From the IMG/VR virus record IMGVR_UViG_2879736954_000010: a DNA stretch of 49,784 nucleotides. One strand, given 5' to 3'. A model generated the notes under the pieces. That model did not search any database. It saw only the letters and a list, made by a program, of their open reading frames with translations, and had not been told where the DNA came from. Below, one piece after another: positions 19,386 to 41,416 of the stretch (positions within the stretch are counted from its first letter, which is position 1; each line of letters opens with the position of its first letter). The position numbers and the translations under genes were made by a program. Source of the stretch: a virus (taxonomy: Duplodnaviria > Heunggongvirae > Uroviricota > Caudoviricetes).

Positions 19386-20891
19386 TCATGGCATGGCCAT
19401 GAGCATTTTCACGTCCGCATCACCGTCTGCTGACGTCTGTGGCACGCCACCCTGTACCGCTGCCGGTGAATGGTTCGCCATGAAATGTTCAAACATGGCG
19501 GTTGTGGATGCAGAAACCGGTTCTGCCCTGCCTGAGGCTGCCGCCAGTACAGCCCGGGCATTCTCCACGGTCATCCCCGGACAGGCCGCCAGTTTTTCAG
19601 CCTGCGCCTCTGCCCCTTTTGCCTCATCCAGGGCCATAATCTGATCACGAAGTGAGGGTCCGGCATTCGCCTGCGGTGAAGCAGCCAGAATCGGACGGGC
19701 TTTTTCCACCGTCATCTCCGGCATCGCCGCCAGCGTTGCCGCCAGTTGTTCACGTCCTTTCGCCTCTTCACATGCCATAATGCGATCGGCTTCACTCTGC
19801 GCAGATACACCAGATTGTTGCGGTGCCGCCACGGCCAGAATCGCCCGGGCCTGCTCAACGCTCATACCCTGTTGCCCTGCCAGCATCGTGGCCAGTTGTT
19901 CACGTCCTTTCGCTTCCTGACACGTCAGGATCCCCATCACTCGCTGGTTCTCCTGCGCGGCAGCCTCCGTTGCAGTTAATTGCGGCATAGTGCCTCCTGT
20001 ATCGTGTGTGTTCAGCGTCGCAGCCATCACGCTGATGGCGTCCGACGCATTGATTAATTCATCCGCCAGTTCGGCCTCAATACCGGACTGACCTTCAAAA
20101 ACGGCGGCCTCTGTTCCCATAACCGCATCCACAGATAAACCGGTATACATCGCCACTTTTTCAGCAAACATCCGGCGCGCCGCATCAATGCGCTGCTGCA
20201 TGTCCTGGCGAACCTTTGCTGGCAGGGATTCAAACTGATTGCCATCCACCTTGTGCGATCCGGCGTAAATCAGCGTGATATCCACACCGGCCTGTGCCAG
20301 ATGACCGGCATAGCTGACATGGCCCATCATCACCCCAATGGAGCCGATACGGGATGTCTGGGTAACCAGCCGTCGGGAGCAGGCCGATGCCAGTAACATG
20401 GCGGCTGAACAGGCCGTGTCATTGCACAGTGCCCAGACAGGCTTCAGCTGCCGGAGACGGTAAATCATGTCAGCGCAGTCAAACGCGCCGGTGGCCTGCC
20501 CGCCAGAACTGTCAATGTCCAGCAGTACGCCCCGTACCTGAGTGTCCGCCATTGCCTGCTGAAGACAGGCGACAATGCCGTCATAGCCAGTCATTCCGGA
20601 AAATGGCCGCATGCCACCCAGCCGGTGTACCAGCGTGCCGGTCACCGGCAGTACAGCAATACCGTTCACCACCCGGTAAACACGGGCAGGTCGTTTGCCT
20701 CCGGCCATGTACTCGTCCGTTTCAGCCAGCATCCCGGGAGCGTCAAGCTGTACCTGCTGTTGCGGTACCGAAAGGCTTGCTGCGCCCATCTCACGCCCGA
20801 GCGCGCAAAAGAAAACCCGCGCATAGGCGGGCTCCAGAAGCAGCGGCTCATTGAATGCCGCAGCGATAATATGTGAAAGATTACGTCTCAC
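19386..20891 (-). CDS. C: Prohead protease/scaffold C (S49 ClpP-like peptidase domain) with nested Nu3-like C-terminal region
   Basis: S49 peptidase-like N-terminal half; C-terminal half carries three about 50-aa tandem repeats (…EAKGREQLA…MxVExAR…); position between B and D. Confidence 0.85.
   Translation of the reverse strand: MRRNLSHIIAAAFNEPLLLEPAYARVFFCALGREMGAASLSVPQQQVQLDAPGMLAETDEYMAGGKRPARVYRVVNGIAVLPVTGTLVHRLGGMRPFSGMTGYDGIVACLQQAMADTQVRGVLLDIDSSGGQATGAFDCADMIYRLRQLKPVWALCNDTACSAAMLLASACSRRLVTQTSRIGSIGVMMGHVSYAGHLAQAGVDITLIYAGSHKVDGNQFESLPAKVRQDMQQRIDAARRMFAEKVAMYTGLSVDAVMGTEAAVFEGQSGIEAELADELINASDAISVMAATLNTHDTGGTMPQLTATEAAAQENQRVMGILTCQEAKGREQLATMLAGQQGMSVEQARAILAVAAPQQSGVSAQSEADRIMACEEAKGREQLAATLAAMPEMTVEKARPILAASPQANAGPSLRDQIMALDEAKGAEAQAEKLAACPGMTVENARAVLAAASGRAEPVSASTTAMFEHFMANHSPAAVQGGVPQTSADGDADVKMLMAMP
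19527..19946 (-). repeat. Three in-frame tandem repeats of about 150 bp inside C/Nu3
   Basis: Protein repeats RVMGILTCQEAKGREQLATMLAGQQGMSVEQARAILA / RIMACEEAKGREQLAATLAAMPEMTVEKARPILA / QIMALDEAKGAEAQAEKLAACPGMTVENARAVLA; DNA motif gccagttgttcacgtcctttcgc recurs at about 19741 and 19891. Confidence 0.7.
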
Positions 20892-22474
20892 GTGATGTTG
20901 TCTCCTCTTCCGGCCTGCGACTCTCCGCTATCTGCTGCTGATACGCCTGGGCTATCCACACCGGACGTGAGAGTCCGGCTTTTTCGCGCTCTGCGGATTC
21001 CCTGACCTGCTGGCGGAAAATGTCCTGATAATCTTCGCCCATCAGTGCCAGTTCTTTCTCATACGTGCTCAGTCCGGCCTCAATGCGCATCACCGATTCC
21101 TGGACCTCCTTGAGCCCGTCAATGGCCATTCTTCCGGAGCTAATCCACTCTGCCCGTGACCAGGCTGAACGCGCCTGGTAAAAATCAAAACGCGCCCGTG
21201 GCGGACGAATAATCCCCCGAAGAAGCGCCTCTTCCAGCCAGCAGGAAAACATCTGCGTGGCCAGCCGGGCCGCAATAAATTTTCGCCGCCCCATAAAATA
21301 GCGCCACGACTCATTGGCGGAGGCGCGGGCACTTGAGTAACTGACCTTCGAGTAATCACGGGACAACTGTTCGTAGGAAACGCCAAGACCGGCTGCAATA
21401 TACCGCAGCAGCGCCTGTTCAAGCGCCGAAAATCCATTGTCTGAATCCTGCGCTGTCTGCAGGTTCAGCGCATCGCCAGGAAAAAAGGTGCGGAATTTTA
21501 ACACCGCCCAGCGTCACGTTATTCGTGTCATACCAGCGGGTGAACTTCTCCAGAATATTAATAAGCGGATTATCCTGCTGACCTTGCGGTGCCCCCGCGA
21601 TATATTCAAATGCCTTTTCGGTATCAAGTTCACTTTCGATTGTGGCTGCATACATCGCCTTCACAATGGCCGACTGAAGCTGCGTGGCCTGCAGGGAGTC
21701 CAGCATCTTCATCCGCTCCATTACGCTGTAAAACTGATTAGCCCCACGGGTCTGCCCGTCCTCCACCGGCTCAAAAATATGCAGCATGGCCGGACGCCCG
21801 GTGGGAAGCTCACGCGGGATCCGCTCCCAGCGTCCGGCACCAGAGAACGGAAAATCATCCTCACAGATATGGTACGCAATCGCCCGCCCATACCGATCGA
21901 CCTCAACCCCGGCCCGCAGAAAGTGGTTCCCCATACCGTGTCCTGGCGTGTCCACCCGTTTCGGACTCACGGCTTTAAAACGCGTACGGAATAACTGCGT
22001 GGTTTCCGTATCCCAGACCGGCTGCACAAAGATTTCGCCGTTAAAGGCATGCACGCCCACCCCTTCACGGATAAATTCCGTAAACGTGCGTTTCCCTTCC
22101 ACGTCGATCTCGCCAAACATTCCTTCTGCGTATTCCGACCAGGCTGCTTCCACCTCCCCGACAAAACTTTTTGCCGTGGTCTCCCGCATCCCCAGCCAAC
22201 GCCAGTTCAGACGGTAGCTGATAAGAAACATGTGCCCGACGATATGATCCTTATGCAGGGCCACCGCATTAGCCGCGATACCGTTATTGCGCACCAGATC
22301 ATCTGCCCGGGCATTCCCCAGACGCAATGCAGGCAACAGGGCCGCATCGGCACTCTGCGCCGGTGGTAACCACTCTGCCATTTGCCCGCCAAATCCTGCG
22401 CCGCCTCCGTTGTAGCTGAGACTCTCACGAAGCGGAACGCCGTTCACATCAATCAGGACAGGCGTTCGTTTCAT
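20881..22474 (-). pseudogene. B: Portal protein B, frameshifted (two overlapping ORFs 21419-22474 and 20881-21504)
   Basis: N-terminal ORF matches lambda gpB to ...GGVKIPHLF, then leaves frame; second ORF resumes ...PGDALNLQTAQDSDNG.... Shift falls at a homopolymer run (plus-strand ggaaaaaagg, ~21479-21484). Confidence 0.8.
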
Positions 22475-22674: not shown

Positions 22675-24585
22675 TCACTCCTCCGGACAGCTTCGCTGCC
22701 AGTTCTTCAAGGGTCGGTTGTGCAGTTGCATCCTTGCGGGATGCAACTGCACAGCCAGATCAAGTTGCCAGCGTTGCACGGACACACGTAATGCCGCATA
22801 GGCATACACCAGGCAGTCCAGCGCTTCGTTACGCCGCTTTTTGTTATCCCACAACAGACGCATCTTTCCTTTTTCCCACTTTTCCACCAGTTCCTCCGCC
22901 ACCAGTTGTTGTGCCTCTGTCTGCGAAAAAATCTCCGGATTATCAGGAAAGCGGATGGCATACGATGTGGCCTCATTCACAGGGGTGGGATCGGCCTTCA
23001 TTCGGGCATAGAGAATTTCTTTTGCGGTATCCGTCCCCACCTCACACAGATACACACCCCGCTGATTGCGGGTTTTCGGCATGGTGATCACCGGCTTGCC
23101 ATAGACAGAGGCACCTTTTACCGGCAGTACCCGGAAAATACCGTGTTTTTTTGACCTCTGATACACGATTTCGCCATCGATCCCCCCGATATCCCAGCAG
23201 ACACGGGAAATGGTCATTTCGGTACCGTCTGCATGGCGGTATTTTTTATTGATCGCCGCATCCACACGTAACAGCGTCTCTTCCTCATCAGGACGTCCCA
23301 TGATGATGATTTTATCCACCAGAAAGGCTTCCTCTCCCGGAGCCCACCCCCAGACATACATCTCAAAACGGTTTCGCTGCGAGTCAATGCCCGCCGTCAG
23401 ATAAACCACCCGGACAGGCACCGTTGCCGTGTAAGGCACAACCTTATCCATCAGTACCTGGTGATCGAGTTTTTCGCCCACGGCCTCTTCCCAGGTCTCG
23501 CCCAGCGTGGTGTTCACAAAAGTTTTCACGCCGTTGGGATCTTTCAGTGCATCCAGCCAGTCACAGACTATCTGTACCCTGGTGGTGAACGGACTGTACG
23601 CCGTCCATATATGGAAAGTGATGGAGCGCGGCGGCGGAATTTCATTACCCGAAGCACTGAAAAACGTCAGACCGTCACACGTCCACATCCCGGTATTGTC
23701 ACAAATCCAGCGCCCCCCGGTCTGATCAAGTTCAGACTGACGGATCACGCAGCCATTATGTTCACACAGGTAATACACCGTTTCCGGTTTACCCTTCTCC
23801 CATTTCAGGCCAAACGACGTCGCATCATCGCCAAACTTCAGATACTGCTCCTCCCCGCAATGAGGGCAAGGGACATAAAACCGCATGAAATGCGCAGATT
23901 CATTCGCAGCTTTTTCAATCTGACAGGAGCCTTTAATTTTTGGCGTTGAACCGCGTATGGATTTTGGCCATACCGAACCTTCAATACGTTTATCGCCAAG
24001 CAGTGTTGGCGAACCTTCTTTTTCCACATCCGGTTCAAACGAGGAGAGTTCGTCATAGCAGACCACATCGACAGATTTTTCACGGTAGTTTTTGGCAGCA
24101 GCACCACCCAAACACCAGAACCCCACACCAGAGGAAAAACGCTTCAGTGTGAGCGTATTATCCCGGTGTTTCCGGCCCAGCCAGGGAGAAAGTTTTTTCA
24201 GGCAAGGAACATCACGAATTGTTGCTTCCACGTGAGACTTCATAAAATCTTCAGCAGCTGAGTCCGTCGGCTGAAAAAGAAGAGTGTTGCGGGATTTGTG
24301 CTCAATAAAATACCCGATCACACCAAGCACCATTTTTGTATAACCAACACGGGCAGATTTAATCAGGTTAACTGTACGAATCTCGTCATTGCCCATGCAG
24401 TTCATGATGGCGACCTGAAACTGCAGCGTTTTCCATTCCCCCTCACCGTATGACGATTCTTTAGGCAGGTAATAATTTTGATCGGCCCATTCTACAGCCG
24501 TCACCGGCAATACCCTGACCAGTGGCTGCAGTGCGATAGTGACTGCCACCATCATATTACTCAGTTGTTGTTCTGATATATTCAT
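22675..24585 (-). CDS. A: Terminase large subunit A
   Basis: Start at internal ATG (MNISEQQLS...); strong similarity to lambda gpA throughout (…KSARVGYTKM…HFMRFYVPCPHCGEEQYLKFGD…). Confidence 0.9.
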   Translation of the reverse strand: MNISEQQLSNMMVAVTIALQPLVRVLPVTAVEWADQNYYLPKESSYGEGEWKTLQFQVAIMNCMGNDEIRTVNLIKSARVGYTKMVLGVIGYFIEHKSRNTLLFQPTDSAAEDFMKSHVEATIRDVPCLKKLSPWLGRKHRDNTLTLKRFSSGVGFWCLGGAAAKNYREKSVDVVCYDELSSFEPDVEKEGSPTLLGDKRIEGSVWPKSIRGSTPKIKGSCQIEKAANESAHFMRFYVPCPHCGEEQYLKFGDDATSFGLKWEKGKPETVYYLCEHNGCVIRQSELDQTGGRWICDNTGMWTCDGLTFFSASGNEIPPPRSITFHIWTAYSPFTTRVQIVCDWLDALKDPNGVKTFVNTTLGETWEEAVGEKLDHQVLMDKVVPYTATVPVRVVYLTAGIDSQRNRFEMYVWGWAPGEEAFLVDKIIIMGRPDEEETLLRVDAAINKKYRHADGTEMTISRVCWDIGGIDGEIVYQRSKKHGIFRVLPVKGASVYGKPVITMPKTRNQRGVYLCEVGTDTAKEILYARMKADPTPVNEATSYAIRFPDNPEIFSQTEAQQLVAEELVEKWEKGKMRLLWDNKKRRNEALDCLVYAYAALRVSVQRWQLDLAVQLHPARMQLHNRPLKNWQRSCPEE

Positions 24586-24864
24586 CGAGTAAATCCGGTA
24601 ATTTATCCCCCGCACGCGCGCACTGATTCGCTCCCTTAGCAATAAGGATTTTCAGATGATCAATATGACGCGGCGTTAAATCCGGGAACTGTCGTTGCAT
24701 GGACAAAGGAATGGAGTCAAGCGTACTGGATAAAGCCATCGCCAGCTTACTAAGGGCAAAAATACAAAATCCGGTATCGATAAGATTTCCTTTTGACACC
24801 TGATTTTTTAACTGCTGTGCGACAGCCTGTTCTGCGGTCAGTTCCCATCTGGCAATGAGTAGTT
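24557..24864 (-). pseudogene. nu1: Terminase small subunit Nu1, 5'-truncated by IS600
   Basis: Remaining ORF matches only the C-terminal half of lambda Nu1 (...DTGFCIFALSKLA...IPLSMQRQFPDLTPRHIDHLK...LLDEYI...); the apparent start codon lies inside IS600. Confidence 0.7.
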
Positions 24865-24907
24865 TGAGGTGTACTGGCAATAGCGGACACTACCATTTGT
24901 TCTTTTT

Positions 24908-25726
24908 TTAAGCAGCCATCTGATGATATTTTTCCCTGAAGGCTGCAGGGGAGATATTCCCCAGACGAGAGTGACGACGCTGACGATTGTAGAAAATCTC
25001 AATGTATTCCCGTATTACTGAGATGGCTTCATCCCGGTTATTAAAACGATAGTGGCTCAGGCTCTCATTTTTCAGCGTTCCCCAGAAGCTTTCCATCGGA
25101 GCGTTGTCGTAACAGTTACCTTTACGCGACATTGATGTTTTCAGACCAGACTGCTCCTGTATGACCCGGTAATCGTATGCGCAGTACTGTGAACCTCGAT
25201 CAGAGTGGTGGATTAGCCCGGCAGGTGGGCGCTGGCTCCTGAGCGCCATAAACAGGGCTTTACCTGTCAGCTCTTTTGTCATGCGCTCTCCCATGGCGTA
25301 GCCGACAATTTCGCACGTATAAACATCTTTGATGCCAGCGAGGTACAACCATCCCTCCTGTGTGGCAACATACGTCAGGTCCGCCACCCAGACCTGATTT
25401 GGTGCTGTAGGAGCGAACGTCTGGTTCAGCAGATTTGGCGCAACTGGCAGATTGTGGTTCGGGTTCGTAGTCGCTCTGAACTTGCGTTTCTGCTTACAGC
25501 GTAGCCTCAGCTCCTTACGAAGACATGCCAGTCGGTCACGACCAACGATGATGCCATTCTCTGCCAGCTCCGTCTGGAGCCGCCGGGTTCCATATGTTTC
25601 GCGAGTGCGGATATGTGCCACCTTAATCTCCAGTTTTAGCCGCTCATCACTTTGTTTTCTGTCTGAGGGTTCATGCTGTACCCAGTTGTAATAACCGCTC
25701 CTGGATACACCAAATACCTGACACAT
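24908..25726 (-). CDS. IS600 transposase OrfB (DDE integrase domain)
   Basis: 272 aa, IS3-family OrfB with HSDRGSQY...D...E catalytic region. Confidence 0.85.
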   Translation of the reverse strand: MCQVFGVSRSGYYNWVQHEPSDRKQSDERLKLEIKVAHIRTRETYGTRRLQTELAENGIIVGRDRLACLRKELRLRCKQKRKFRATTNPNHNLPVAPNLLNQTFAPTAPNQVWVADLTYVATQEGWLYLAGIKDVYTCEIVGYAMGERMTKELTGKALFMALRSQRPPAGLIHHSDRGSQYCAYDYRVIQEQSGLKTSMSRKGNCYDNAPMESFWGTLKNESLSHYRFNNRDEAISVIREYIEIFYNRQRRHSRLGNISPAAFREKYHQMAA

Positions 25727-25761
25727 CGCTTCAATGGGAAATTGTTGTCGCCATTGTTCGA

Positions 25762-26064
25762 TTAACGCGTATTTTTCAGCGACTCCTGTGCAAAATACGC
25801 TGTTGCTTTTTTTAATATATCTCGCTCAAGGCGAGCTTCATTTAACGCCTTACGCAGTTGCAGAATTTCAGATTCCAGTTCAGCCAGCGTGCGGGAACCA
25901 GGAGTACCGAGCCCTTTTCTGGCGGCGGTAACCCATTGTCCTAAAGTGCCTTCAGGAAGAGATAATCGGGAAGCGCCTTCACTGATCGAAAGTTGATTTT
26001 CAAGAACCGTTCTGACAGCTTCGGCTTTGAACTCTTTAGAGTAACGTTGGGTTTTTCTGCTCAT
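25762..26064 (-). CDS. IS600 OrfA (HTH/leucine-zipper protein)
   Basis: 100 aa, IS3-family OrfA ending ...LKKATAYFAQESLKNTR. Confidence 0.85.
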   Translation of the reverse strand: MSRKTQRYSKEFKAEAVRTVLENQLSISEGASRLSLPEGTLGQWVTAARKGLGTPGSRTLAELESEILQLRKALNEARLERDILKKATAYFAQESLKNTR

Positions 26065-26115
26065 TATTAGCTCCTTCTGATGCCATTCTATTTCAGGAAG
26101 GAGTGTCCGTTAAAC

Positions 26116-26310
26116 TCAGGCTACCTCACCCGTCCCGGATACCGAGAACGTTTCGTCCAGCAACTGGAGAGAGTTCGACGGTGGCATCATTGCCCATGCC
26201 GGAGGCGCTGGAGGTTTCGGCTGAGGATGGCACAGGGCATTTTCCTTTGACGAGCACCCGACCACCATTATCAAGCTTGCGCCGAAGAGCATCATTTTCA
26301 GCTTTCGCAT
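26116..26310 (-). CDS. Rz1: Rz1-like o-spanin lipoprotein embedded in Rz (C-terminus replaced by IS600-derived codons)
   Basis: Signal/lipobox ...LIMVVGCSS followed by proline-rich [13 protein letters not shown], as lambda Rz1; ORF runs 12 nt into IS600. Confidence 0.6.
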
Positions 26311-26530
26311 CAGCTAACTCCTTCGTGTATTTAGCATCGAGTGCATCAGCATCACGCTGGCGCTGCTGCATGTCAGTAATGGTTGCGTTCGCCAGCTTCA
26401 GTTCTCCGGCGTTTTTGTCGCGCTGCTCTTTGTAGGTAATGGCGTTATCACGGTAATGATTAACAGCCCATGACAGGCAGACGATGATGCAGATAACCAG
26501 AGCGGAGATAATCGCGGTGACTCTGCTCAT
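26129..26530 (-). pseudogene. Rz: Rz i-spanin, 3'-truncated by IS600
   Basis: [34 protein letters not shown]...[17 protein letters not shown] matches lambda Rz; the C-terminal ~22 codons, present in the second copy at 33244-33489, are missing. Confidence 0.75.
26130..26305. repeat. 176-bp Rz/Rz1 segment, inverted-repeat copy A (partner 33244-33419)
   Basis: Encoded peptides (…[58 protein letters not shown]…) identical in both copies on opposite strands. Confidence 0.8.
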
Positions 26531-27060
26531 TGATCTATCCCCCAACAGGCTAATGCGCTTTCCTGGTCACGACGAATAACCTGTCCATAGCAGTTATTTG
26601 AACGTATGCGGCAATCGCGCCCAACATCTTTTATCCACCAGCGAATCGCCTCGCATGCGCCCTTACGATCACCGGCATTCAGCCGCTTATAAAACGTCGA
26701 CGGGAAACACTTACCGGGGCCAATGTTATAGGGGCAAAATGACGCTATACCCGCTTTCTGGGGTTCGGTCAGAGGTACTTTAATATTGCGCTCCACCCAT
26801 GCCAGCGCCTTATCACGTTCAATAGCGTTAACCTGGTCACATTTTTCCTTCGACAGCTTCATTCCCGGTATGACAGGCTTACCATCCACCATTGTGGCAC
26901 CACGACAGATGGTCCATATGCCAGAACCATCACGGTATGCCGTTGTGTGATTACCCTCTTTTTCGTTCAGAAACTGGTCAAGTATCTGGGGAGCAGACGC
27001 GCCTGCGGCAATCAGCGCCAGAACAGCAGCCGACAGGCCGTATTTGATTTTTGCGCTCAT
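26527..27060 (-). CDS. R: SAR endolysin (T4-lysozyme-like muramidase, phage 21 R-type) with N-terminal signal-anchor-release segment
   Basis: N-terminal hydrophobic stretch [15 protein letters not shown] followed by EGN[17 protein letters not shown], similar to P21 R (…[23 protein letters not shown]…). Confidence 0.85.
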
Positions 27061-27125: not shown

Positions 27126-27755
27126 TCAGCCCCGGCTGGATCCAGTCATCAGGCTCTTTCTTAAAGGGGGAGTATTGAAATCACGAAGAAGAGCCTCCCG
27201 CACCGCAGCATCCATGTCTGCACCACTGGCAAGTGCTTCAATCTCTGCCGCCACCTGCAAATACCCCATGCAACGGCCAATGCGTTTCATAACTCTGGTG
27301 TTTTCGTCTTTCAGGCATCTGATAGCGAGATTAATAATTTTCAGGCAGTGATGATGCGATGCCCGGACAGGTTTTCCGTTCTCATAAACGACGAACTCAC
27401 CCTCTTCACAGGAAACCCTGAAAGGCCGATGGGGTTCCTGGTCTTTATCCGGTGCAGACGCAATAAAATCACTTTTATGCTCTTCCTCTCCGGCACTGTT
27501 AACCGTAATGACGTACTCAGGCCGCAGGTAAGCCGCCTCTTTTTCTGACAATGCGGCCGGTAAAAACTTTTCCTGCAAAAACTTCATAAAAGTCTCGTGA
27601 GCGACTTTGTGGCAGTAATCGTAAATCGCCGCATAATGCTCATCGCGGCGTTTGTTTTCATCTTCAGAACTCACCAACGCCGACAATTTTTTATTAAGCT
27701 CAGTGATTTCATTTTCCAGGTGATTGAATCGCTGATTCATTTCTTCATGCTTCAT
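27126..27755 (-). CDS. Hypothetical protein (209 aa) inserted between holin and endolysin; N-terminal coiled coil, Cys/His-rich C-terminal half
   Basis: Long ORF translationally coupled to holin stop; no family recognised by eye. Confidence 0.5.
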   Translation of the reverse strand: MKHEEMNQRFNHLENEITELNKKLSALVSSEDENKRRDEHYAAIYDYCHKVAHETFMKFLQEKFLPAALSEKEAAYLRPEYVITVNSAGEEEHKSDFIASAPDKDQEPHRPFRVSCEEGEFVVYENGKPVRASHHHCLKIINLAIRCLKDENTRVMKRIGRCMGYLQVAAEIEALASGADMDAAVREALLRDFNTPPLRKSLMTGSSRG

Positions 27756-27758: not shown

Positions 27759-27974
27759 TTACTCTCCCCGTGCAGCCTTACGCTTGTCTTCTCTTATTTT
27801 GAAATACAGATTCGTCAGATAAGTCAGAAGCCCCAGAAGCAGACTTCCCAGCACACCAATCGCAGCCCACTGTGATGGCCTGACCTGATCCAACCACTGC
27901 AAAAACCAGTAGCCGGCACTGCCGGCGGAGGTGCCGTAGGCAATGCCCGTTGAAATTTTGTCCATGGATTTCAT
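27759..27974 (-). CDS. S: S21-type pinholin with dual-start motif (MKSM)
   Basis: [31 protein letters not shown]...[35 protein letters not shown] is nearly identical to phage 21 S as I recall it. Confidence 0.85.
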
Positions 27975-28266: not shown

Positions 28267-28342
<76 letters not shown>

Positions 28343-28345
28343 TAT

Positions 28346-28421
<76 letters not shown>

Positions 28422-28423
28422 CT

Positions 28424-28500
28424 GGCCCACCACCGAGGACTCGAACCTCGCACCGTCAACTTAGAAGGTTGATGCTCTATCCGGATGAGCTAGTGGTGGT
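28424..28500 (-). tRNA. tRNA-Arg (anticodon UCU)
   Basis: Reverse complement CCACCACUAGCUCAUCCGGAUAGAGCAUCAACCUUCUAAGUUGACGGUGCGAGGUUCGAGUCCUCGGUGGUGGGCCA; anticodon loop CUUCUAA; unusual C1-G72 start of acceptor stem. Confidence 0.7.
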
Positions 28501-28501
28501 T

Positions 28502-28578
28502 GGTGGCCCTTGCTGGACTTGAACCAGCGACCTGGCGATTATGAGTCGCTCGCTCTGACCAACTGAGCTAAAGGGCCG
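28502..28578 (-). tRNA. tRNA with CAU anticodon, ileX/ileZ-like (Ile2 or Met)
   Basis: Reverse complement GGCCCUUUAGCUCAGUUGGUCAGAGCGAGCGACUCAUAAUCGCCAGGUCGCUGGUUCAAGUCCAGCAAGGGCCACCA; very similar to E. coli ileX as I recall it. Confidence 0.8.
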
Positions 28579-31965: not shown

Positions 31966-32057
31966 CGCTGTCACCTCAGAATGTCTGAAGTGGCACACTG
32001 AATTTGGCCACCTGAACAGAGGTGATATGCTCACCTCAGAACAACACAGGTGCTCCA

Positions 32058-33226
<1,169 letters not shown>

Positions 33227-33243
33227 CCACTTCAGCCACTTCA

Positions 33244-33419
33244 AAAGCTGAAAATGATGCTCTTCGGCGCAAGCTTGATAATGGTGGTCGGGTGCTCGTC
33301 AAAGGAAAATGCCCTGTGCCATCCTCAGCCGAAACCTCCAGCGCCTCCGGCATGGGCAATGATGCCACCGTCGAACTCTCTCCAGTTGCTGGACGAAACG
33401 TTCTCGGTATCCGGGACGG
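33244..33419. repeat. 176-bp Rz/Rz1 segment, inverted-repeat copy B (partner 26130-26305)
   Basis: See copy A. Confidence 0.8.
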
Positions 33420-33445
33420 AATCATCAGCGACCAGACAGCATTGA
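33254..33445 (+). CDS. Rz1: Rz1-like o-spanin lipoprotein (apparently complete)
   Basis: [63 protein letters not shown]; lipobox plus proline-rich segment. Confidence 0.6.
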   Translation: MMLFGASLIMVVGCSSKENALCHPQPKPPAPPAWAMMPPSNSLQLLDETFSVSGTESSATRQH

Positions 33446-33577
33446 GAATGCTTCAGGAGTACATCAGGATCCAATGCCTTGGGGGGTAGCGGTAATTTTA
33501 CTCATTATCCTTCAAATCAGATTCTGTTGTCAGAGGAATGGGGGACGCTGGATTCGCAAGAGCTTTTTATGGGCAGT

Positions 33578-34090
33578 TTAGCTAAAAAAAGGCAACACGA
33601 AGCTAAAACTACCAACATAAAGTGCTGACCAGCTAGCAGCTGAAATCAGACTCACTGTATACACTTTCACTGGATGAAGTTGCAACATTCCTGCCACCAA
33701 AGGAGCAATGTAACGCAGCACGGCGATAAAGCGCGAAGTGAAAAGTATTGACACAGAGTTATTTTGCAACTGAAGGCGAACCCGTTCTATTGTATTGGAA
33801 CGGCTCGATATTATACATGCAAGTTGAGGGATATGCCCAATTATTATACCAAGATGGTAATTAACGATAGTACCGCACCATGCGCCACTCATGACCGTGA
33901 TTCCAGCTTCCCATGGTGAAAGAGTCGTCTTGCTGACTGTAATTACAGTGGCCATCATAATTGATGCTGGTGGCAATATCGCCGAAATGAGTAAAGTGGA
34001 TTTTGTGAACGCTATTATAAAAAGAAGCCCCCATAGGCGATATGGATGAAGTACAAAATAGTTCATCAAAGCATTTATCCACTCCATCAA
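33578..34090 (-). CDS. Hypothetical polytopic inner-membrane protein (170 aa), possibly DedA/VTT-like
   Basis: Four to five hydrophobic segments; occupies the bor-equivalent position after Rz on the opposite strand; family assignment tentative. Confidence 0.35.
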   Translation of the reverse strand: MMEWINALMNYFVLHPYRLWGLLFIIAFTKSTLLISAILPPASIMMATVITVSKTTLSPWEAGITVMSGAWCGTIVNYHLGIIIGHIPQLACIISSRSNTIERVRLQLQNNSVSILFTSRFIAVLRYIAPLVAGMLQLHPVKVYTVSLISAASWSALYVGSFSFVLPFFS

Positions 34091-34284
34091 TGTCTTTCCT
34101 TCTGTGAATTTTTCTTTGCTATTTAACCGTGATACGACTTAATTTAGGCTTAAACACCTTACATTTACAAGGTACTCCTGTGGGGGGCCCTGCCACGGAG
34201 CGTCGCAGGAGTGAGTGATGAGGAAGAATTAAAGCAACCTATTGTGACAGGCAGCGATAACAGTAAATCACAGGAAGCATAATC

Positions 34285-35049
34285 ATGGCAAAACCGGACT
34301 GGGAGGCCATCGAATCGGCATACCGGGCCGGAGTCCTTAGCCTCCGTGATATAGGCGAGAAATACGGCGTTACAGAAGGGGCTATCAGGAAGAGGGCCAA
34401 AAAGCTTGATTGGGCACGCAGTGGCGGTACGCAGGTTTGCAAAAATGGTACGCAAAAAAGGAAAGTGCGTACCAGCAGAAAGCCTGCCATTACTGGCCTT
34501 ACACAAAAAAGTACGCAACTAAAAACAGAATCTACACCGGATACGAAACCGATACGCGGAATGCGTACCGATCCCCCGACTAACCCATTCCAACCCGGTA
34601 ACCAGCAGGCATTAAAACACGGTGGTTATGCCCGTCGCCTTCTGCTCAAAGATGAGGTGATAGAGGACGCTAAAGCGTTGACGCTCGAGGACGAATTATT
34701 TCGCCTTCGTGCTAACAACCTTGTCGCTGCAGAGAATATTGGTCGGTGGTTGGTGTCGCTGGAAGATGCTAATGGGGACCAGGAAAGGAAGATGCTGATT
34801 GAAAATATCAGCGCCGCCGAGAAAGCAATGATGCGCAATACAGTTCGTATTGAGTCCATCGTTGGCACGCTTGCGACGGTAGGAAAAATATTTGCTGATA
34901 CAGCCTACCGCAAGGCCGCCACTGATAAGGTGTCTCTGGAGGCTGATCGTCTTCGCCGTGATGCAGGTATTGATGATGGCAATGGAGAGCGTGACCTCAA
35001 TGACTTCTACTCTGACATCCAAACCGACGCTGAATCCGGCTTTACGTAG
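34285..35049 (+). CDS. Putative terminase small subunit (N-terminal HTH)
   Basis: 254 aa immediately upstream of the terminase large subunit; N-terminal HTH-like segment LSLRDIGEKYGVTEGAIRKRAKK. Confidence 0.6.
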   Translation: MAKPDWEAIESAYRAGVLSLRDIGEKYGVTEGAIRKRAKKLDWARSGGTQVCKNGTQKRKVRTSRKPAITGLTQKSTQLKTESTPDTKPIRGMRTDPPTNPFQPGNQQALKHGGYARRLLLKDEVIEDAKALTLEDELFRLRANNLVAAENIGRWLVSLEDANGDQERKMLIENISAAEKAMMRNTVRIESIVGTLATVGKIFADTAYRKAATDKVSLEADRLRRDAGIDDGNGERDLNDFYSDIQTDAESGFT

Positions 35050-35758
35050 TTTCTGGACTATGCGGGCACGTAACAAAGTGCTTTATGGTGGTCGGTCATC
35101 GTCAAAATCATGGGATGCCGCTGGCATTGCCATATTTCTGTCGAATAAATACACCCTGCGTTTTTGTTGTGCCCGTCAGATCCAGAATAAAATCGAAGAG
35201 TCGGTGTATACCCTGCTCAAAATTCAGATAGACAGGTTTGGTCTGCGGCACCGTTTCCGTATTCTGAACAACAAAATCATTAACCGGGTTACTGGCTCGG
35301 AATTTGTTTTTTATGGATTATGGCGCAACATCGAAGAAATTAAGTCACTGGAGGGGATCGATATGTTGTGGTTGGAAGAAGCCCACGCACTGACGGAATA
35401 CCAGTGGAAAATTCTGGAGCCAACGATCCGTAAAGAGGGTTCGGAATGCTGGTTCATATTCAACCCCGGACTTGTTACTGATTTCGTCTGGCGCAACTTC
35501 GTTGTTGATCCGCCCGAAGGCACTCTCATCCGCAAAATTAACTATGACGAAAATCCGTTTCTGTCTGACACCATGCTTAAGGTTATCGACGCGGCGCGAC
35601 GCCGTGATCCGGATGGTTTTAAACATGTGTATGAGGGCGTTCCGGAGTCTGATGATGATGCGGCAATTAGACTGGCCCCCTGAATCTCCAGACAACCAGT
35701 ATCACTTATTTAAGTGATAGTCTTAATACTAGTTTTTAGACTAGTCATTGGAGAACAG

Positions 35759-36124
35759 ATGATTGATGTCTTAGGGCCGGAGAAACGCAGACGGCGTACC
35801 ACACAGGAAAAGATCGCAATTGTTCAGCAGAGCTTTGAACCGGGGATGACGGTCTCCCTCGTTGCCCGGCAACATGGTGTAGCAGCCAGCCAGTTATTTC
35901 TCTGGCGTAAGCAATACCAGGAAGGAAGTCTTACTGCTGTGGCCGCCGGAGAACAGGTTGTTCCTGCCTCTGAACTTGCTGCCGCCATGAAGCAGATTAA
36001 AGAACTCCAGCGCCTGCTCGGCAAGAAAACGATGGAAAATGAACTCCTCAAAGAAGCCGTTGAATATGGACGGGCAAAAAAGTGGATAGCGCACGCGCCC
36101 TTATTGCCCGGGGATGGGGAGTAA
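35759..36124 (+). CDS. insC: IS2 InsC (OrfA)
   Basis: [56 protein letters not shown]... Confidence 0.85.
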
Positions 36125-36987
36125 GCTTAGTCAGCCGTTGTCTCCGGGTGTCGCGTGCGCAGTTGCACGTCATTCTCAGACGAACCGATGACTGGATGGA
36201 TGGCCGCCGCAGTCGTCACACTGATGATACGGATGTGCTTCTCCGTATACACCATGTTATCGGAGAGCTGCCCACGTATGGTTATCGTCGGGTATGGGCG
36301 CTGCTTCGCAGACAGGCAGAACTTGATGGTATGCCTGCGATCAATGCCAAACGTGTTTACCGGCTCATGCGCCAGAATGCGCTGTTGCTTGAGCGAAAAC
36401 CTGCTGTACCGCCATCGAAACGGGCACATACAGGCAGAGTGGCCGTGAAAGAAAGCAATCAGCGATGGTGCTCTGACGGGTTCGAGTTCTGCTGTGATAA
36501 CGGAGAGAGACTGCGTGTCACGTTCGCGCTGGACTGCTGTGATCGTGAGGCACTGCACTGGGCGGTGACTACCGGCGGCTTCAACAGTGAAACAGTACAG
36601 GACGTCATGCTGGGAGCGGTGGAATGCCGCTTCGGCAACGATCTTCCGTCGTCTCCAGTGGAGTGGCTGACGGATAATGGTTCATGCTACCGGGCTAATG
36701 AAACACGCCAGTTCGCCCGGATGTTGGGACTTGAACCGAAGAACACGGCGGTGCGTAGTCCGGAGAGTAACGGAATAGCAGAGAGCTTCGTGAAAACGAT
36801 AAAGCGTGACTACATCAGTATCATGCCCAAACCAGACGGGTTAACGGCAGCAAAGAACCTTGCAGAGGCGTTCGAGCATTATAACGAATGGCATCCGCAT
36901 AGTGCGCTGGGTTATCGCTCGCCACGGGAATATCTGCGGCAGCGGGCTTGTAATGGGTTAAGTGATAACAGATGTCTGGAAATATAG
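36082..36987 (+). CDS. insD: IS2 InsD (OrfB transposase)
   Basis: 301 aa IS2 OrfB. Confidence 0.85.
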
Positions 36988-37731
36988 GGGCAAATCCAGC
37001 AATCATCAAACTGTCTTGGATAGAAGCCGCAGTGGATGCGCACAAAACGTTAAATTTCGAACCCAGTGGAAGAAAGCGTATTGGCTTTGACGTGGCTGAC
37101 AGTGGTACAGATAAGTGCGCTAACGTTTACCGTCACGGATCCGTTGTTTTCTGGGCCGACGAATGGAAGGCCAAAGAAGATGAATTACTGAAGAGCTGCC
37201 AGCGTACTTATCAGGCGGCGCTGGAGCGTGAAGCAGATATTGTTTACGACTCTATCGGTGTTGGTGCGTCTGCCGGTGCTAAATTCTCTGAAATTAACGC
37301 TGACCGGAAGAGCGAGAACGCATACGCGCGACGTGTGAATTACCAGAGGTTTAACGCCGGTGCTGGTGTGCATGAGCCAGATGACGAGTACAACGGCATC
37401 CCCAACAAAGACTTTTTCGCAAATCTTAAGGCTCAGGCATGGTGGCTGACCGTTTCAGAAATACGTTTAACGCCATTAACAACGGAGAACAGTATCCTGT
37501 GGATGAGCTGATCAGCATAGATTCTCGTTGTCCGTTGCTTGAAAAGCTGAAACTGGAACTGACAACACCTCATCGTGATTTCGACCGTAACGGACGTGTG
37601 ATGGTCGAAAGTAAAAAAGACCTCGCAAAACGCGAGATACCGTCACCAAACGTTGCTGATGCATTCATTATGGCCTTCGCGCCAATCGATACATCGCTGG
37701 ATATCTGGGAACAGCTGGGGAGACAGGCCTG

Positions 37732-39198
37732 ATGGCACGAAACAAACAAGCCCTGCGGCGAACTGTGCAGGCCACAGCTGATGGTTATGAGAATTTTATT
37801 GCCCGAGTAGGGATGCAGACACCTAACCAGCACTCAGCATCCACCTACCGGGCTAATTTCACCAGTCGTAACCGCATGCTGGTGGAATGGTCCTATCGTT
37901 CATCCTGGATCATCGGCGAAGCAGTCGATGCTATCCCGGATGATATGACCCGCAAAGGCATTCGCATCACTTCGGAAATTGATGCAAAAGATCGTGGCAT
38001 TCTCGAATCACAACTGGATGAGTTGCAAATCTGGGATGCGCTGAATGACGTGCTGAAATGGTCGCGCCTCTACGGCGGCGCGGTGGGTTTCATCATGATT
38101 GAGGGGCAGGCACCAATGACCCCGCTGCGACCCGAAACCATCGGTAAGGGCAAGTTTAAGGGGATTCTCCCGCTCGACCGCTGGATGGTCGACCCGGCAC
38201 TGACCCGCCGCATTAAAGATATGGGGCCGGACCTGGGTAAACCTGAGTTTTACGATGTGGTGACCACAGCAACGGGAATTCCTGCCTGGCGCATTCATCA
38301 CAGTCGCCTGATTCGCTTTGATGGCGTCACGTTGCCATTTCAGCAGAAGATGACCGAGAACGAATGGGGAATGTCGGTTGTAGAGCGTATCTGGGATCGT
38401 CTTACCGCGTTCGACAGCGCTACTGTCGGCGCGGCGCAGCTGGTCTACAAGGCGCATTTGCGTACCTACAGCGTGGAGAAGCTACGCGAGCTTATCGCAC
38501 TTGGTGGTCCTGCGTATGAAGCGTTGCTGAAGAATATCGACCTGATTCGACAGTTCCAGAGTAATGAAGGCATGACGCTCATGGACTCGCGGGATAAGTT
38601 TGAAACCCATCAGTACAGCTTCAGTGGTCTGGATGACATCCTTTCGCAGTTTGCAGAACAGATTAGTGGCGCTGTTGGTATCCCACTGGTGCGGTTGTTC
38701 GGACAGTCCCCGAAAGGATTTTCTACCGGTGATGCAGACCTTGCCAACTATTACGATCGCATCAGTTCGTTGCAGGAGAGGCGTTTACGTCTTCCGGTGC
38801 GGCGGATACTGGACATCATGCATCGTTCGGAACTTGGCAAGCCGCTGCCGGACGATTTCACGTTTGAGTTTAACCCGCTCTGGCAAATGTCTGATGTCGA
38901 TCGCTCAACGGTGGCGTTAAACACCACCAACGCAATCAGTACGGCGATGGGTGATGGTCTGATGACACTGAAAGCCGCTATGACTGATTTGCGAGAAAAT
39001 TCTGACGTAACCGGCATAGGGGCATCCATTACCAACGAGGACATCGAGAATGCCGAAGATGAAGCGCCGCCCGGCATCGGCGAACCTGATGACGAACCGC
39101 AGGAGCCGTCAGGCGGAAATCCGGTATCGAACCAGCCTACGCAGGATAGCGAGGGCGGTCGGAGACATCGTAAATGGTCGCTACGATGGTTCAAATGA
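37732..39198 (+). CDS. Phage portal protein (488 aa)
   Basis: Size and position directly after terminase; acidic C-terminus; start ATG overlaps terL stop (TGATG). Confidence 0.75.
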   Translation: MARNKQALRRTVQATADGYENFIARVGMQTPNQHSASTYRANFTSRNRMLVEWSYRSSWIIGEAVDAIPDDMTRKGIRITSEIDAKDRGILESQLDELQIWDALNDVLKWSRLYGGAVGFIMIEGQAPMTPLRPETIGKGKFKGILPLDRWMVDPALTRRIKDMGPDLGKPEFYDVVTTATGIPAWRIHHSRLIRFDGVTLPFQQKMTENEWGMSVVERIWDRLTAFDSATVGAAQLVYKAHLRTYSVEKLRELIALGGPAYEALLKNIDLIRQFQSNEGMTLMDSRDKFETHQYSFSGLDDILSQFAEQISGAVGIPLVRLFGQSPKGFSTGDADLANYYDRISSLQERRLRLPVRRILDIMHRSELGKPLPDDFTFEFNPLWQMSDVDRSTVALNTTNAISTAMGDGLMTLKAAMTDLRENSDVTGIGASITNEDIENAEDEAPPGIGEPDDEPQEPSGGNPVSNQPTQDSEGGRRHRKWSLRWFK

Positions 39199-39832
39199 CA
39201 GTATCACGGAAATTATTGCGGCGCTGGAGCGTTACAGTGAAATCATCACCCCCTGGGCGACAAAGGTCGCGGAAAACTTTACTGCGGACCTAACCCGGCA
39301 GAACGAGAAAGTTTGGCGGCAACACAGCAAGAACATCAGTCGCGAGCTCCGCAATCTTGTGGAAAGCGCTCCTGTGGGCCAGGTGATGCAATCCATCATC
39401 GCCGAACAGGTCAAGTACATCAAATCTCTGCCTCTCGAGGCCGCAGACAGGGTGTACGACATCCAGAACAAAGCGATAGAGGCTGTTGTCACCGGTGGTC
39501 GGGCGGAGCAGTTTGCTAAAGAGATTGCATCTACCGGCGATGTTGCTAAGTCTAGGGCCGATCTGATTGCCCGAACGGAACTGGGAAGAGCAACGGGCGC
39601 GCTGGATATGGCCCGAGCGATAGCTATTGGCTCGGATGGTTATATTTGGCGTACAGCCGATGATGGCGATGTCCGAGATTCCCACGATCACATGAAAGGT
39701 AAATTCGTCCGCTGGGATTCACCTCCAACTTTGGACGGCATGACCGGCCACGCGGGCGAGCTGCCAAACTGCCGCTGCTATAAAGAGATCGTGTTTGTTC
39801 GCGTTCCATTCGCAATGAAAAGGGCAGCATAA
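39050..39832 (+). CDS. Head morphogenesis / minor capsid protein (Mu F / SPP1 gp7-like)
   Basis: C-terminal ...YIWRTADDGDVRDSHDHMKGKFVRWDSPPTLDG...PNCRCY motif typical of Mu-F-like proteins; true start uncertain (ORF overlaps portal by ~150 nt). Confidence 0.65.
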   Translation: MPKMKRRPASANLMTNRRSRQAEIRYRTSLRRIARAVGDIVNGRYDGSNDSITEIIAALERYSEIITPWATKVAENFTADLTRQNEKVWRQHSKNISRELRNLVESAPVGQVMQSIIAEQVKYIKSLPLEAADRVYDIQNKAIEAVVTGGRAEQFAKEIASTGDVAKSRADLIARTELGRATGALDMARAIAIGSDGYIWRTADDGDVRDSHDHMKGKFVRWDSPPTLDGMTGHAGELPNCRCYKEIVFVRVPFAMKRAA

Positions 39833-39835
39833 CCC

Positions 39836-41056
39836 ATGAAATACTTTTTTGAGACCAGGCTCGGGGAAACCCGATACCGCCTGGCTGACGGCTCGTTGCT
39901 GTGCAAAGACGTGCCGATAGGACGAACAGGTAAGCAGCTCTATGGTGCTGATGACCTGCCAAAACTGAAACCCGATAAGTTCGTTGAAATAGTCGTCACG
40001 CGTTCTCCTGAGCAGGTATTCCATCCGGCCACGCTTGCCTCATTCGAAGGGATGAGCATCACGATCCTGCATCCTGAAGATGAAAACGGGAATGTGCGGC
40101 TGGTAAATCCCGAGAACTGGAAAGTGCTTGCTGTCGGGCACCTCCAGAATGTCCGGCGCGGGACGGGTGAGCAGTCTGATTTGATGCTGGCTGACCTTAT
40201 CGTCAAAGACGAAAGCGCCATTCAGCTTATCGAAGATGGCCTGCGCGAAGTGTCGTGCGGCTATGACGCGGAGTACGAGCAGACCGAGCCAGGTAAAGCC
40301 GAGCAGGTCGATATTACCGGAAACCATGTGGCTCTTGTCCCTAAAGGCAGAGCCGGAAATCGTTGTGCAATTGGAGACAGAGACACAATGGCAAATCAAA
40401 AGAAAAACTGGTGGAACCGCATGCGTGCGGCCATCAAGACAGGAGATGCCGACACCATGAACGAACTGGTGGAGTCGGCTCCCGCATCGGTTACAGGAGA
40501 TGAGGGGGATTTGCCGCAGGGCGTTAATCTCAACATCAACCTGTCCCCGCAGCAACCACTACCGGACAAAGCACCAGAGATGGGCGGAGATCCAACCGGC
40601 GACAGTGATGATGACCTCAAAACATTACTGAAAGCCCTGCTGGCTAAGCTGGAAAGAAATGCCACGGGCGATAACGATAATAAGCCTGACGATAATCCGA
40701 CCGGTGACGGCGAGGACGATGAAGAGGAAACCACGATTACTGGTGACTCAGCCTGGCGTGCCGAAGTTATCGTTCCGGGTATCGATCTGAGCCGTAAGAT
40801 GAAACCGACCGCGTTCAAACGCGAGGTTCTGGCTTCTGCTGACAAAACGCTGGTTCGCCAGATAGTCGGTGATGCGGATATCCGCAAATTACCGAAACAA
40901 TCGGTCGACATGGCGTTTAATGCCGTGTCTGAGGTTGCCAAAGGGCGAAACACCCGCGCCACCACCGGCGATGCACAGCGCCTAAACATGGGCATGACCA
41001 GTATCGCTTCCCTGAACAAACAAAACGCTGAATTCTGGGCAAACCGTAAAGGGTAA
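39836..41056 (+). CDS. Putative prohead scaffold/protease (DUF2213-like), acidic C-terminal region
   Basis: Position between minor capsid and major capsid genes; family assignment from memory only. Confidence 0.45.
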   Translation: MKYFFETRLGETRYRLADGSLLCKDVPIGRTGKQLYGADDLPKLKPDKFVEIVVTRSPEQVFHPATLASFEGMSITILHPEDENGNVRLVNPENWKVLAVGHLQNVRRGTGEQSDLMLADLIVKDESAIQLIEDGLREVSCGYDAEYEQTEPGKAEQVDITGNHVALVPKGRAGNRCAIGDRDTMANQKKNWWNRMRAAIKTGDADTMNELVESAPASVTGDEGDLPQGVNLNINLSPQQPLPDKAPEMGGDPTGDSDDDLKTLLKALLAKLERNATGDNDNKPDDNPTGDGEDDEEETTITGDSAWRAEVIVPGIDLSRKMKPTAFKREVLASADKTLVRQIVGDADIRKLPKQSVDMAFNAVSEVAKGRNTRATTGDAQRLNMGMTSIASLNKQNAEFWANRKG

Positions 41057-41059
41057 AAA

Positions 41060-41416
41060 ATGAATAATGTATTTCTGTACCGGATGCCTGTTGGCATTGC
41101 CGGGGCTGTCTCTCGCCCGCAGGACTTAACCGTCGAACCGGTGGTCCTTAAATCCGATAACGCCTTCGCTGCCTATGGCCTGGCTGGTAAATACGATGAT
41201 GACGGTTTTTTCGTGCCGCTGGCAGATGGTGATACCGCAGACAAGGTGAAGGGGATCTACGTGCGCCCTTATCCGACCACGTCGCAGCCGGACATGGTTC
41301 GCCAGGTGGGAACAGGCAAGAACTTCCCGGGCGACGCCATGAAGCGTGGCTACGTGACCGTTAATCTCGGTTCTGATTTTGATGCCAGCACTATCAAAAA
41401 AGGCGATCTCCACTGA
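41060..41416 (+). CDS. Hypothetical head protein (118 aa)
   Basis: Small ORF immediately upstream of major capsid gene. Confidence 0.35.
   Translation: MNNVFLYRMPVGIAGAVSRPQDLTVEPVVLKSDNAFAAYGLAGKYDDDGFFVPLADGDTADKVKGIYVRPYPTTSQPDMVRQVGTGKNFPGDAMKRGYVTVNLGSDFDASTIKKGDLH

Follow-up and report, generated by a model that had tools for sequence, protein, structure and literature searches.

Shigella flexneri genomes hold about 345–365 insertion sequences (IS) each, and all of their prophages are cryptic (PMC5596473). Deletion of DNA beside an IS has been explained in two ways for the elements closest to the case treated here. For the IS3-family element IS629, a 'sloppy' one-ended strand transfer has been proposed (bioRxiv 10.1101/2023.06.07.543989), and for the loss of 23 kb from pINV of enteroinvasive Escherichia coli (EIEC), recombination between two copies of IS600 (PMC7283534). 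The present analysis concerns a stretch of 49,784 nucleotides (nt), IMG/VR record IMGVR_UViG_2879736954_000010 (hereafter the window), in which a complete IS600 stands between truncated copies of the lysis gene Rz and the small terminase gene Nu1 of a lambdoid prophage, at the place of the cos site. The window is a segment of the S. flexneri chromosome comprising ybcL and ipaH, prophage remnants, a truncated dpiA (dpiA'), dcuC and pagP.

Comparison with sister strains makes it almost certain that this junction has a two-step history, in which IS600 inserted into Nu1 and a deletion anchored at one end of the IS later removed cos together with the neighbouring ends of Rz and Nu1. The event is ordinary IS-driven prophage decay, of a kind that is well known, and given the IS load and the uniformly cryptic prophages of the species (PMC5596473) the lesion is a typical example. 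The sections below describe the junction, the allelic states from which its history is read, the possible routes of the deletion, and the rest of the remnant.

The IS600 junction and its distribution in S. flexneri

Read on the minus strand, the locus runs S, a 209-amino-acid (aa) open reading frame (ORF), R, Rz', IS600, Nu1', A, W and portal, with the orfA-proximal end of the IS against Rz' and its orfB-distal end against Nu1' (coordinates in Table 1). The element has TG...CA termini, and both ends begin TGAGGT... and are imperfect inverted repeats of each other, with 20 matches among the first 30 positions. Over its full length it is 99.1–99.5% identical to annotated IS600 from E. coli genomes and Stx phages, and the E. 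coli copies carry the annotation 'IS3-like element IS600 family transposase, programmed frameshift'. An A7G slippery site at IS positions 316–323 provides the −1 frameshift that yields a 385-aa OrfAB. Judged by its sequence, this IS600 is complete and apparently functional. A promoter scan found no outward IS600 promoter directed into Nu1'-A, only the element's own promoter-like site, and the number of promoter-like sites in the scan did not exceed that in shuffled sequence.

On the plus strand the flanks read ...GAGTAGTT, then the IS, then CCCGTCCC..., that is, GTT against CCC (wider flanks ...CAATGAGTAGTT and CCCGTCCCGGAT...). No 3-bp target duplication therefore surrounds the element in the window, while the same copy does have one in strains M90T and 8401. 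Such non-matching flanks mark a secondary rearrangement and are no argument against the identity of the element. A second IS600 copy lies 18 kb away (42743–44006, minus strand), oriented like the first and differing from it by 5 mismatches. It too is without a target duplication (flanks AAT and ATA), and it stands between a pac-type major capsid gene and a Mu-type transposase gene (44004–45638) whose C-terminus it cuts. An exchange of flanks by inversion between the two copies was considered and rejected, since GTT/CCC and AAT/ATA do not pair.

Both phage genes at the junction are damaged. The intact Rz allele of M90T encodes 155 aa and has the same sequence as Rz' up to the joint, beyond which the window is missing the last 21 residues (IISDQTALRMLQEYIRTQCLK) and the stop codon, including the C-terminal Cys (…YIRTQCLK); the stop of Rz' is a TGA (26126–26128) contributed by the IS600 terminus. 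The embedded Rz1 gene, which overlaps Rz' in the +1 frame, reads across the joint into IS600, so that its last eight residues, ESSATRQH, are replaced by four, GEVA. The N-terminal membrane anchor of Rz and the lipobox of Rz1 (...MVVGC), both spanin features, are retained, and the intact C-termini of the two proteins are absent from the window. The subunits of the lambda spanin interact through their C-terminal ends; by analogy, the pair encoded here would be deprived of its interacting C-termini, the C-terminal Cys of Rz included.

On the other side of the IS, comparison with the 169-aa EIEC Nu1 translation shows that Nu1' is without residues 1–68, which amounts to 40% of the protein and its whole N-terminal region. 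A full-length Nu1, with an N-terminal DNA-binding and a C-terminal gpA-interaction region, is thus not present in the window. In lambda it is the N-terminal region of Nu1 that binds cosB. The start of the terminase A gene still overlaps the 3' end of Nu1'. No cos-like sequence and no Nu1 5' end was found elsewhere in the window in comparisons with the cos-containing segments of EIEC and M90T.

A first-pass annotation made from the sequence alone had already read the minus-strand order as Rz, IS600, Nu1'-A-W, had noted the unmatched gtt and ccc flanks, and had placed the loss of cos and of the DNA-binding region of the small terminase at this junction. The gene order, the directly measured flanks and the search for a second cos all agree with it. 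Its figures needed adjustment: Rz is truncated as described, with a loss of exactly 21 codons plus the stop of the 155-aa allele where about 22 codons had been estimated, and Nu1 has indeed lost its entire N-terminal region, which is less than the half that had been given.

Loci carrying the junction were collected by exact look-up of the 134-aa Rz' protein and then of the gpW protein and the protein of the 209-aa lysis-cassette ORF. The 134-aa Rz' is indexed in 311 blocks of a public assembly collection, 23 of them with contigs above 1 Mb. The two 50-nt joints are the same in each of the eight loci fetched through this protein, and the Rz'-IS600 joint, CCGGGACGGG running into TGAGGTAGCC, occurs in 21 fetched loci. 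At least 16 independent S. flexneri assemblies, complete or nearly so, contain it, among them serotype 2a 2457T (AE014073), G1663, AR-0425, AUSMDU00008332, the 1a strain 0228 and a 4c strain; the accessions with the joint belong to S. flexneri strains (PMC9455713, PMC5429569).

This distribution bears on whether the junction exists at all. IS600 is a multi-copy element, and short-read assemblies often break or misjoin at such repeats, so a collapse or misjoin would be a familiar kind of error, and the first-pass annotation had named it as the finding that would overturn its reading. The same joints recur identically in at least 16 independent assemblies, including the finished genomes of 2457T, G1663, AR-0425 and AUSMDU00008332, and together with the 311 blocks that hold the 134-aa Rz' this argues that the junction is no assembly artefact; we consider the chance of one negligible.

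Among 5,426 complete E. coli RefSeq genomes and a phage collection, no E. coli or phage record holds the joint. The best covering E. coli hits were rejected as instances of the same junction, because in them IS600 lies inside R (95_0274), upstream of the holin gene (O121:H19) or downstream of Rz (07_3986). One 4.44-Mb record filed as 'Escherichia coli strain ECMA0423' (CP178302.1; our loci L007 and L035) carries the S. flexneri-specific Rz'-IS600 joint and is probably a Shigella-type genome placed under E. coli. The junction has stood in public reference genomes for two decades, and the open-access literature held nothing usable on this specific lesion or on 'ipaH islands'.

Allelic states of the locus and a single parental prophage

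The ancestral condition is preserved in sister strains that have the insertion without the deletion. This insertion-only state occurs in serotype 5a M90T (CM001474; our locus L033), serotype 5b 8401 (CP000266), serotype Y 93-3063 (CP026768) and three NCTC assemblies. On the lysis side, M90T has S, the 209-aa ORF, R, an intact Rz (155 aa), 382 bp and an inverted IS600 with a GTC duplication. On the packaging side follow 1505 bp whose end is formed by cos and the 5' end of Nu1, then AAC, IS600, AAC, Nu1', A, W and portal. In M90T and 8401 the joints read ...GAAGAGAAAC against TGAGGTAGCC... and ...CACCTCA against AACTACTCATTG, with AAC on both sides; written from its terminal bases, the same IS600 reads ...GAAGAGAAAC, TGAGG...CCTCA, AACTACTC. 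In the 5a and Y-type strains this Nu1 copy is itself interrupted by a nested IS3-family element at IS positions 181–184 (L033 12076–17452). Outside the junction the insertion-only genomes have flanks 99.7–99.8% identical to those of the window (in M90T, 99.84% on the lysis side and 99.7% on the packaging side) and a portal frameshift in common with it.

The joint between IS600 and Nu1' (...CACCTCA against AACTACTCATTG) is identical in 29 of 29 occurrences across the deletion-state and insertion-only states. The constancy of this joint, together with the perfect AAC duplication of the insertion-only state, shows that the first step was an ordinary insertion of IS600 into Nu1, a state that survives in serotypes 5a, 5b and Y. 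It was a simple insertion at Nu1 codon 68 that duplicated AAC (GTT on the plus strand of the window). The matching AAC triplets of the M90T type further identify the GTT of the window as the surviving half of that duplication, and the Rz side as a later deletion joint. The deletion itself took place in the lineage of serotypes 2a, 1a and 4c that includes 2457T. It ran from the orfA-proximal terminus of IS600 to codon 134 of Rz and left IS600 and its joint with Nu1' untouched. In the window the ancestral IS600-Nu1' joint is kept, the opposite IS terminus lies against the once-distant Rz codon 134, and the unique DNA that separated them is absent.

Relative to M90T, the window state is without L033 11627–14844, a segment of 3218 nt made up of 67 nt from Rz, a further 382 nt, the inverted IS600 (1264 bp) and 1505 nt. 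Once the IS600 and the duplicated triplets are subtracted, 1948 nt of unique phage DNA were deleted. Gone with it are the last 21 codons of Rz, the C-terminal end of Rz1, small accessory ORFs amounting to about 1.1 kb, cos with its cosN and cosB, and the first 68 codons of Nu1. The small ORFs, of unknown function, match phrog_26415 and phrog_4439 and give one weak anti-repressor-like match. The deletion beside the IS that the first-pass annotation suggested is thus borne out by the sister alleles of M90T, 8401 and 93-3063. It had correctly assigned cos and both gene ends to the missing segment, and the extent proves larger than that, at about 1.95 kb of phage DNA, or 3.2 kb if the second IS600 was already in place.

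A third state was found in CP026772 and CP097828 (our loci L019 and L017, positions 1361–3725). Rz is intact there, and the stretch between two inverted IS600 copies, including cos, has been lost. The breakpoints of these two genomes lie at mirror-image IS600 positions, which looks like the excision of a snap-back structure.

Relatives outside the species show what a complete version of the locus contains. Positions 9947–31985 of the window are collinear, over 22 kb and at 95–99% identity, with one prophage of EIEC O96:H19 (CFSAN029787/EF432). The two have in common the order tail, head, portal, W, A, Nu1, cos, DUF4406, Rz, R, S, tRNAs, Q and DnaB-type replication genes. At the place of IS600 the EIEC prophage has 1207 bp (the left flank aligns up to position 3000 of its locus, L010, and the right flank from 4208), which consist of 202 nt from the 5' end of Nu1, an intergenic region of 585 bp, the DUF4406 gene and the last 67 nt of Rz. 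No part of this segment was found elsewhere in the window. Within the 585-bp region lie a cosN-like core, CACTATTTATGAAAATTTTTCGG, and three repeats of the ACCGGACAT type; we take this core to be similar to the left end of lambda. The segment retained in M90T-type strains likewise holds the lambda-like cosN core and repeated sites of that type. Its alignment with free mEp460-group phages extends to the last base, at the right-hand end, of the mEp460_4F5 record (LR595868.1) and, in the mEp460 records, comes within about 140 nt of the right end. The coincidence of the alignment ends with the record ends in this group places cos at about L033 14410–14415.

These comparisons also speak to the idea that the flanks of the junction come from two lambdoid prophages joined by IS600-mediated recombination, so that the locus would be a chimera and not a local deletion. 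The genome does carry several lambdoid remnants, a second Rz fragment in the window (33235–33489) is 100% identical to 26130–26305 over 176 nt, and between strains the same prophage shows IS911-mediated rearrangement. Both flanks are nonetheless collinear with one EIEC prophage across the 22 kb, and M90T holds the lysis cassette and Nu1'-A-W-portal, at the identities given above, in one contiguous prophage in which they are split only by the segment missing from the window. A chimeric origin is accordingly very improbable.

Route of the deletion

How the second step took place is less settled than its occurrence. We prefer an adjacent deletion initiated at the IS end and would give it an even chance. 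The IS600 transposase would in this case move the orfA-proximal end onto a nearby target in Rz instead of onto the other IS end. Several points weigh against this route. Copy-out-paste-in transposition by itself leaves no deleted donor, and an extra resolving step is needed (bioRxiv 10.1101/2023.06.07.543989). Homologous recombination with a directly oriented IS600 in Rz would yield the same product. The timing of the M90T inverted IS600 leaves two values for the size of the deletion, 1.95 kb, or 3.2 kb if that copy was already present. Finally, the joint contains a G at 26129 that neither clean route predicts.

The same two-step history could have been completed by RecA-dependent recombination between the Nu1 IS600 and a direct IS600 copy at Rz codon 134, leaving one hybrid IS600 flanked by half of each duplication. 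We hold this for a serious candidate that falls somewhat short of an even chance. The outcome, a complete IS with non-matching flanks, is indistinguishable from what is seen. IS600 is also dense locally, with two copies within 3 kb in M90T, a third in one NCTC strain and another 18 kb away in the window; IS600-IS600 recombination has the pINV precedent (PMC7283534); and elements that transpose by copy-out-paste-in are not expected to make adjacent deletions unaided (bioRxiv 10.1101/2023.06.07.543989). The cost is one more event, a third insertion, of which no trace was seen: IS600 was not found in Rz at codon 134, and among the fetched loci 12 of 12 other copies of Rz run through this site without interruption. 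A clean insertion also leaves the extra G at 26129 unexplained. Single-nucleotide polymorphism (SNP) patterns were compared between the window's two IS600 copies, the two of the M90T type and the same copy as found in other assemblies; they gave no sign of a hybrid, in a comparison that is without power because it is noisy and inconsistent between assemblies.

An Rz::IS600 intermediate would carry a reciprocal joint, in which IS600 is followed by the Rz 3' end (...CACCTCA and then AATCATCAGCGACC, or CAGTACACCTCA with AATCATCAGCGACC within 0–4 nt of it). None was found in the fetched loci. None was found either in the GTDB representative genomes or the JGI metagenomes, where a control with the real joint recovered only 2 and 0 records, so that these two negatives are weak, the collections containing almost no S. 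flexneri. Strand transfer from the IS end is favoured only slightly over recombination between two copies, and on grounds of parsimony.

The single base at the joint deserves separate attention. In gene sense, position 26129 is A in 12 of 12 uninterrupted Rz copies and G in 21 of 21 deletion-state loci, and the window is identical to CP026772 and CP097828, where Rz is intact, over the 911 nt up to the joint save for this G. At their orfA-proximal ends both M90T IS600 copies are preceded by C. Polymorphism was rejected as a simple source of the G, since all uninterrupted Rz copies in hand have A. The base may be a scar of 1 nt from the joining reaction, or else a substitution that fell there by coincidence, and it could possibly have arisen as a later point mutation.

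Two further possibilities are a deletion that had nothing to do with the IS, in which illegitimate recombination or replication slippage ended at the IS terminus by chance, and an error-prone end-joining or strand switch during IS replication, which would leave a 1-nt scar; the untemplated G fits an error-prone joining step better than it fits either clean pathway. An endpoint within 1 nt of the IS600 terminus is very unlikely to fall there by chance if the deletion was independent of the IS, and no microhomology is visible between the Rz site (GACGG/AATC) and the IS flank (GAGAAAC/TGAGG). Taken together, these alternatives are improbable. With a chance that is slim, if a shade better, the joint G and the insertion-only alleles could constitute a natural before-and-after pair for an error-prone (IEE/PrimPol-like) flanking deletion by an IS3-family element. 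If true, this would supply in vivo support for a pathway on which there is still debate where copy-out-paste-in elements are concerned. In a weaker form of this reading, the loss of cos would have been selected, because it locks the ipaH-linked prophage in the chromosome and prevents its mobilisation by helper phages.

The rest of the remnant and its place among known systems

Table 1. Features of the Rz–IS600–Nu1 junction and of the adjoining prophage genes (positions in the window).
Feature	Position	Strand	Basis or remark
Portal gene, split by +1 frameshift	20881..22474	-	MAFFT alignment with EIEC and E. coli 95_0274 portal genes
Terminase large subunit A, 636 aa, intact ORF	22675..24585	-	Pfam GpA_ATPase, GpA_nuclease; gene calls in other assemblies
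Nu1' small terminase, 3' part, residues 69-169 and stop	24557..24864	-	Pfam Phage_Nu1 (PF07471), E = 6e-19, profile 85-163 of 164
GTT, remaining copy of the 3-bp target duplication (gene sense AAC)	24862..24864	.	AAC on both sides in M90T and 8401
IS600 (IS3 family), complete, 1264 bp	24865..26128	-	End pattern match at 24865; length and flanks measured
IS600 orfB, 272 aa, DDE/rve domain	24908..25726	-	ORF list; Pfam rve, rve_3, HTH_21 on identical gene
IS600 orfA, 100 aa	25762..26064	-	ORF list; Pfam HTH_Tnp_1 on identical gene in other loci
Rz1, embedded o-spanin	26116..26310	-	Pfam Rz1 (PF06085), E = 4e-21; compared with the 68-aa intact M90T Rz1
Single untemplated base at the Rz-IS600 joint	26129..26129	.	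C on plus strand, G in gene sense; from neither Rz nor IS600
Rz', truncated i-spanin, codons 1-134 of 155	26129..26530	-	Pfam Phage_lysis (PF03245), E = 2e-23, profile 1-104 of 126
Endolysin R, 177 aa, intact	26527..27060	-	ORF list; Pfam Phage_lysozyme
Holin S, 71 aa, intact	27759..27974	-	ORF list; Pfam Phage_holin_2_1

Further lesions lie on both sides of the junction. The portal frameshift reported by the first-pass annotation was confirmed: the gene is split by a T too many in a run of T at gene nucleotide 989 (about 21486 in the window), and the resulting fragment of 351 aa is annotated in all S. flexneri loci examined, whatever their allelic state. The EIEC prophage has a different portal frameshift, with one G fewer at gene nucleotide 1257. 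The early region is cut by an IS911 (31986–33234) and then joined to an inverted piece of another prophage. Without cos and the DNA-binding part of Nu1, and by analogy with lambda, the element would not be recognised, cut or packaged, even by a helper phage. The loss of cos and the 5' end of Nu1, the portal frameshift and the IS911-broken early region together would make it an immobile remnant, fixed in the chromosome beside an ipaH effector gene.

Several other features of the prophage were recorded. The 209-aa ORF between the holin and endolysin genes (27126–27755, minus strand) has no Pfam match and corresponds to phrog_1085, of unknown function; the EIEC relative is without it at the same position. 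Four tRNA genes (28267–28577, minus strand) lie between Q and the holin gene and are 98.7% identical to those of the EIEC prophage. They are Gly-TCC, Thr-TGT, Arg-TCT and one with a CAT anticodon, which ARAGORN assigns to Met and the EIEC annotation to Ile. The gene of the S49 peptidase (501 aa; head protease/scaffold) contains three diverged 94-nt direct repeats (19543–19927), with 66–73% identity to the reference copy.

The second Rz/Rz1 copy (33235–33489, plus strand), inverted and 5'-truncated, keeps its 3' end complete and adjoins IS911. On the far side of this IS911, 2457T and other strains have a Toprim_2 primase gene in place of the Rz copy, a difference that indicates an IS911-mediated inversion polymorphism. 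A second, pac-type prophage remnant follows (33578–42502), with genes for a VTT-domain membrane protein, a small and a large terminase, Phage_portal_3 and Major_capside; its large terminase gene is split by an IS2 (about 35668–36998). Beyond it is a Mu-like remnant (44004–47209) with transposase A, a Ner-like HTH_35 gene and a repressor-like gene. Beside this remnant, dpiA (46907–47209) is reduced to its C-terminal HTH domain, and dcuC and pagP follow. At the opposite end of the window, a ybcL-like PEBP gene occupies positions 1–477, and a chromosomal ipaH gene (1060–2823, plus strand; 587 aa, Pfam LRR_TTSS and NEL E3 ligase) lies just past the tail-fibre end of the lambdoid remnant.

Beyond annotation the lesion is of little importance; with it, the ipaH-adjacent lambdoid element of the 2a/1a/4c lineage would be neither packaged nor mobilised by helpers. 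It does provide a decay series, in which the portal frameshift and the IS600 insertion are common to the 5a, 5b and Y strains and the cos deletion is later. Moreover, the three junction sequences are usable as lineage markers within S. flexneri, and insertion-only M90T would be a convenient substrate for the experimental study of flanking deletions by IS3-family elements. What remains mildly interesting is the natural before-and-after allelic pair with its 1-nt scar.

Among described systems, the IS629-associated deletions of E. coli O157 (Kusumoto et al. 2011, per bioRxiv 10.1101/2023.06.07.543989) are close in form. They likewise involve an IS3-family, copy-out-paste-in element, the IS is kept and its duplication lost, and one end of the IS marks the exact start of the deletion, which extends into adjacent prophage DNA. 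The present case differs in concerning IS600 in Shigella and not IS629 in EHEC (enterohaemorrhagic E. coli), in having one untemplated base at the joint and in the survival of the insertion-only intermediate in sister lineages. The tra deletion of pINV in EIEC and Shigella, for which IS600-IS600 recombination has been proposed (PMC7283534), involves the same IS and organisms and has the same outcome, the loss of mobility functions. There, two IS600 copies are seen flanking the lost segment in a relative, whereas here only one of the two required has been seen, and the second IS600 in relatives of the window prophage is inverted and at another site.

The phage module itself follows the plan of lambda and phage 21, with the common order Rz, accessory genes, cos, Nu1, A, W and portal, with matches to Pfam Phage_Nu1, GpA_ATPase/GpA_nuclease, gpW and Phage_portal_2, and, in intact relatives, with a cosN core similar to that of lambda. 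Unlike the lambda module, that of the window is broken, cos and Nu1 residues 1–68 being absent and the portal gene frameshifted, and the prophage Nu1, of 169 aa and with a GTG start, is only distantly similar to lambda Nu1. As a whole the element resembles DLP12, Rac and Qin of E. coli K-12 and the IS-eroded prophages of Shigella, which are likewise defective lambdoid remnants with some intact genes (here holin, endolysin, terminase A and head and tail genes) and with the requirements for excision and packaging missing. In contrast to DLP12, Rac and Qin, the remnant of the window lies beside an ipaH type III effector gene, and an allelic series within the species dates the steps of its decay.

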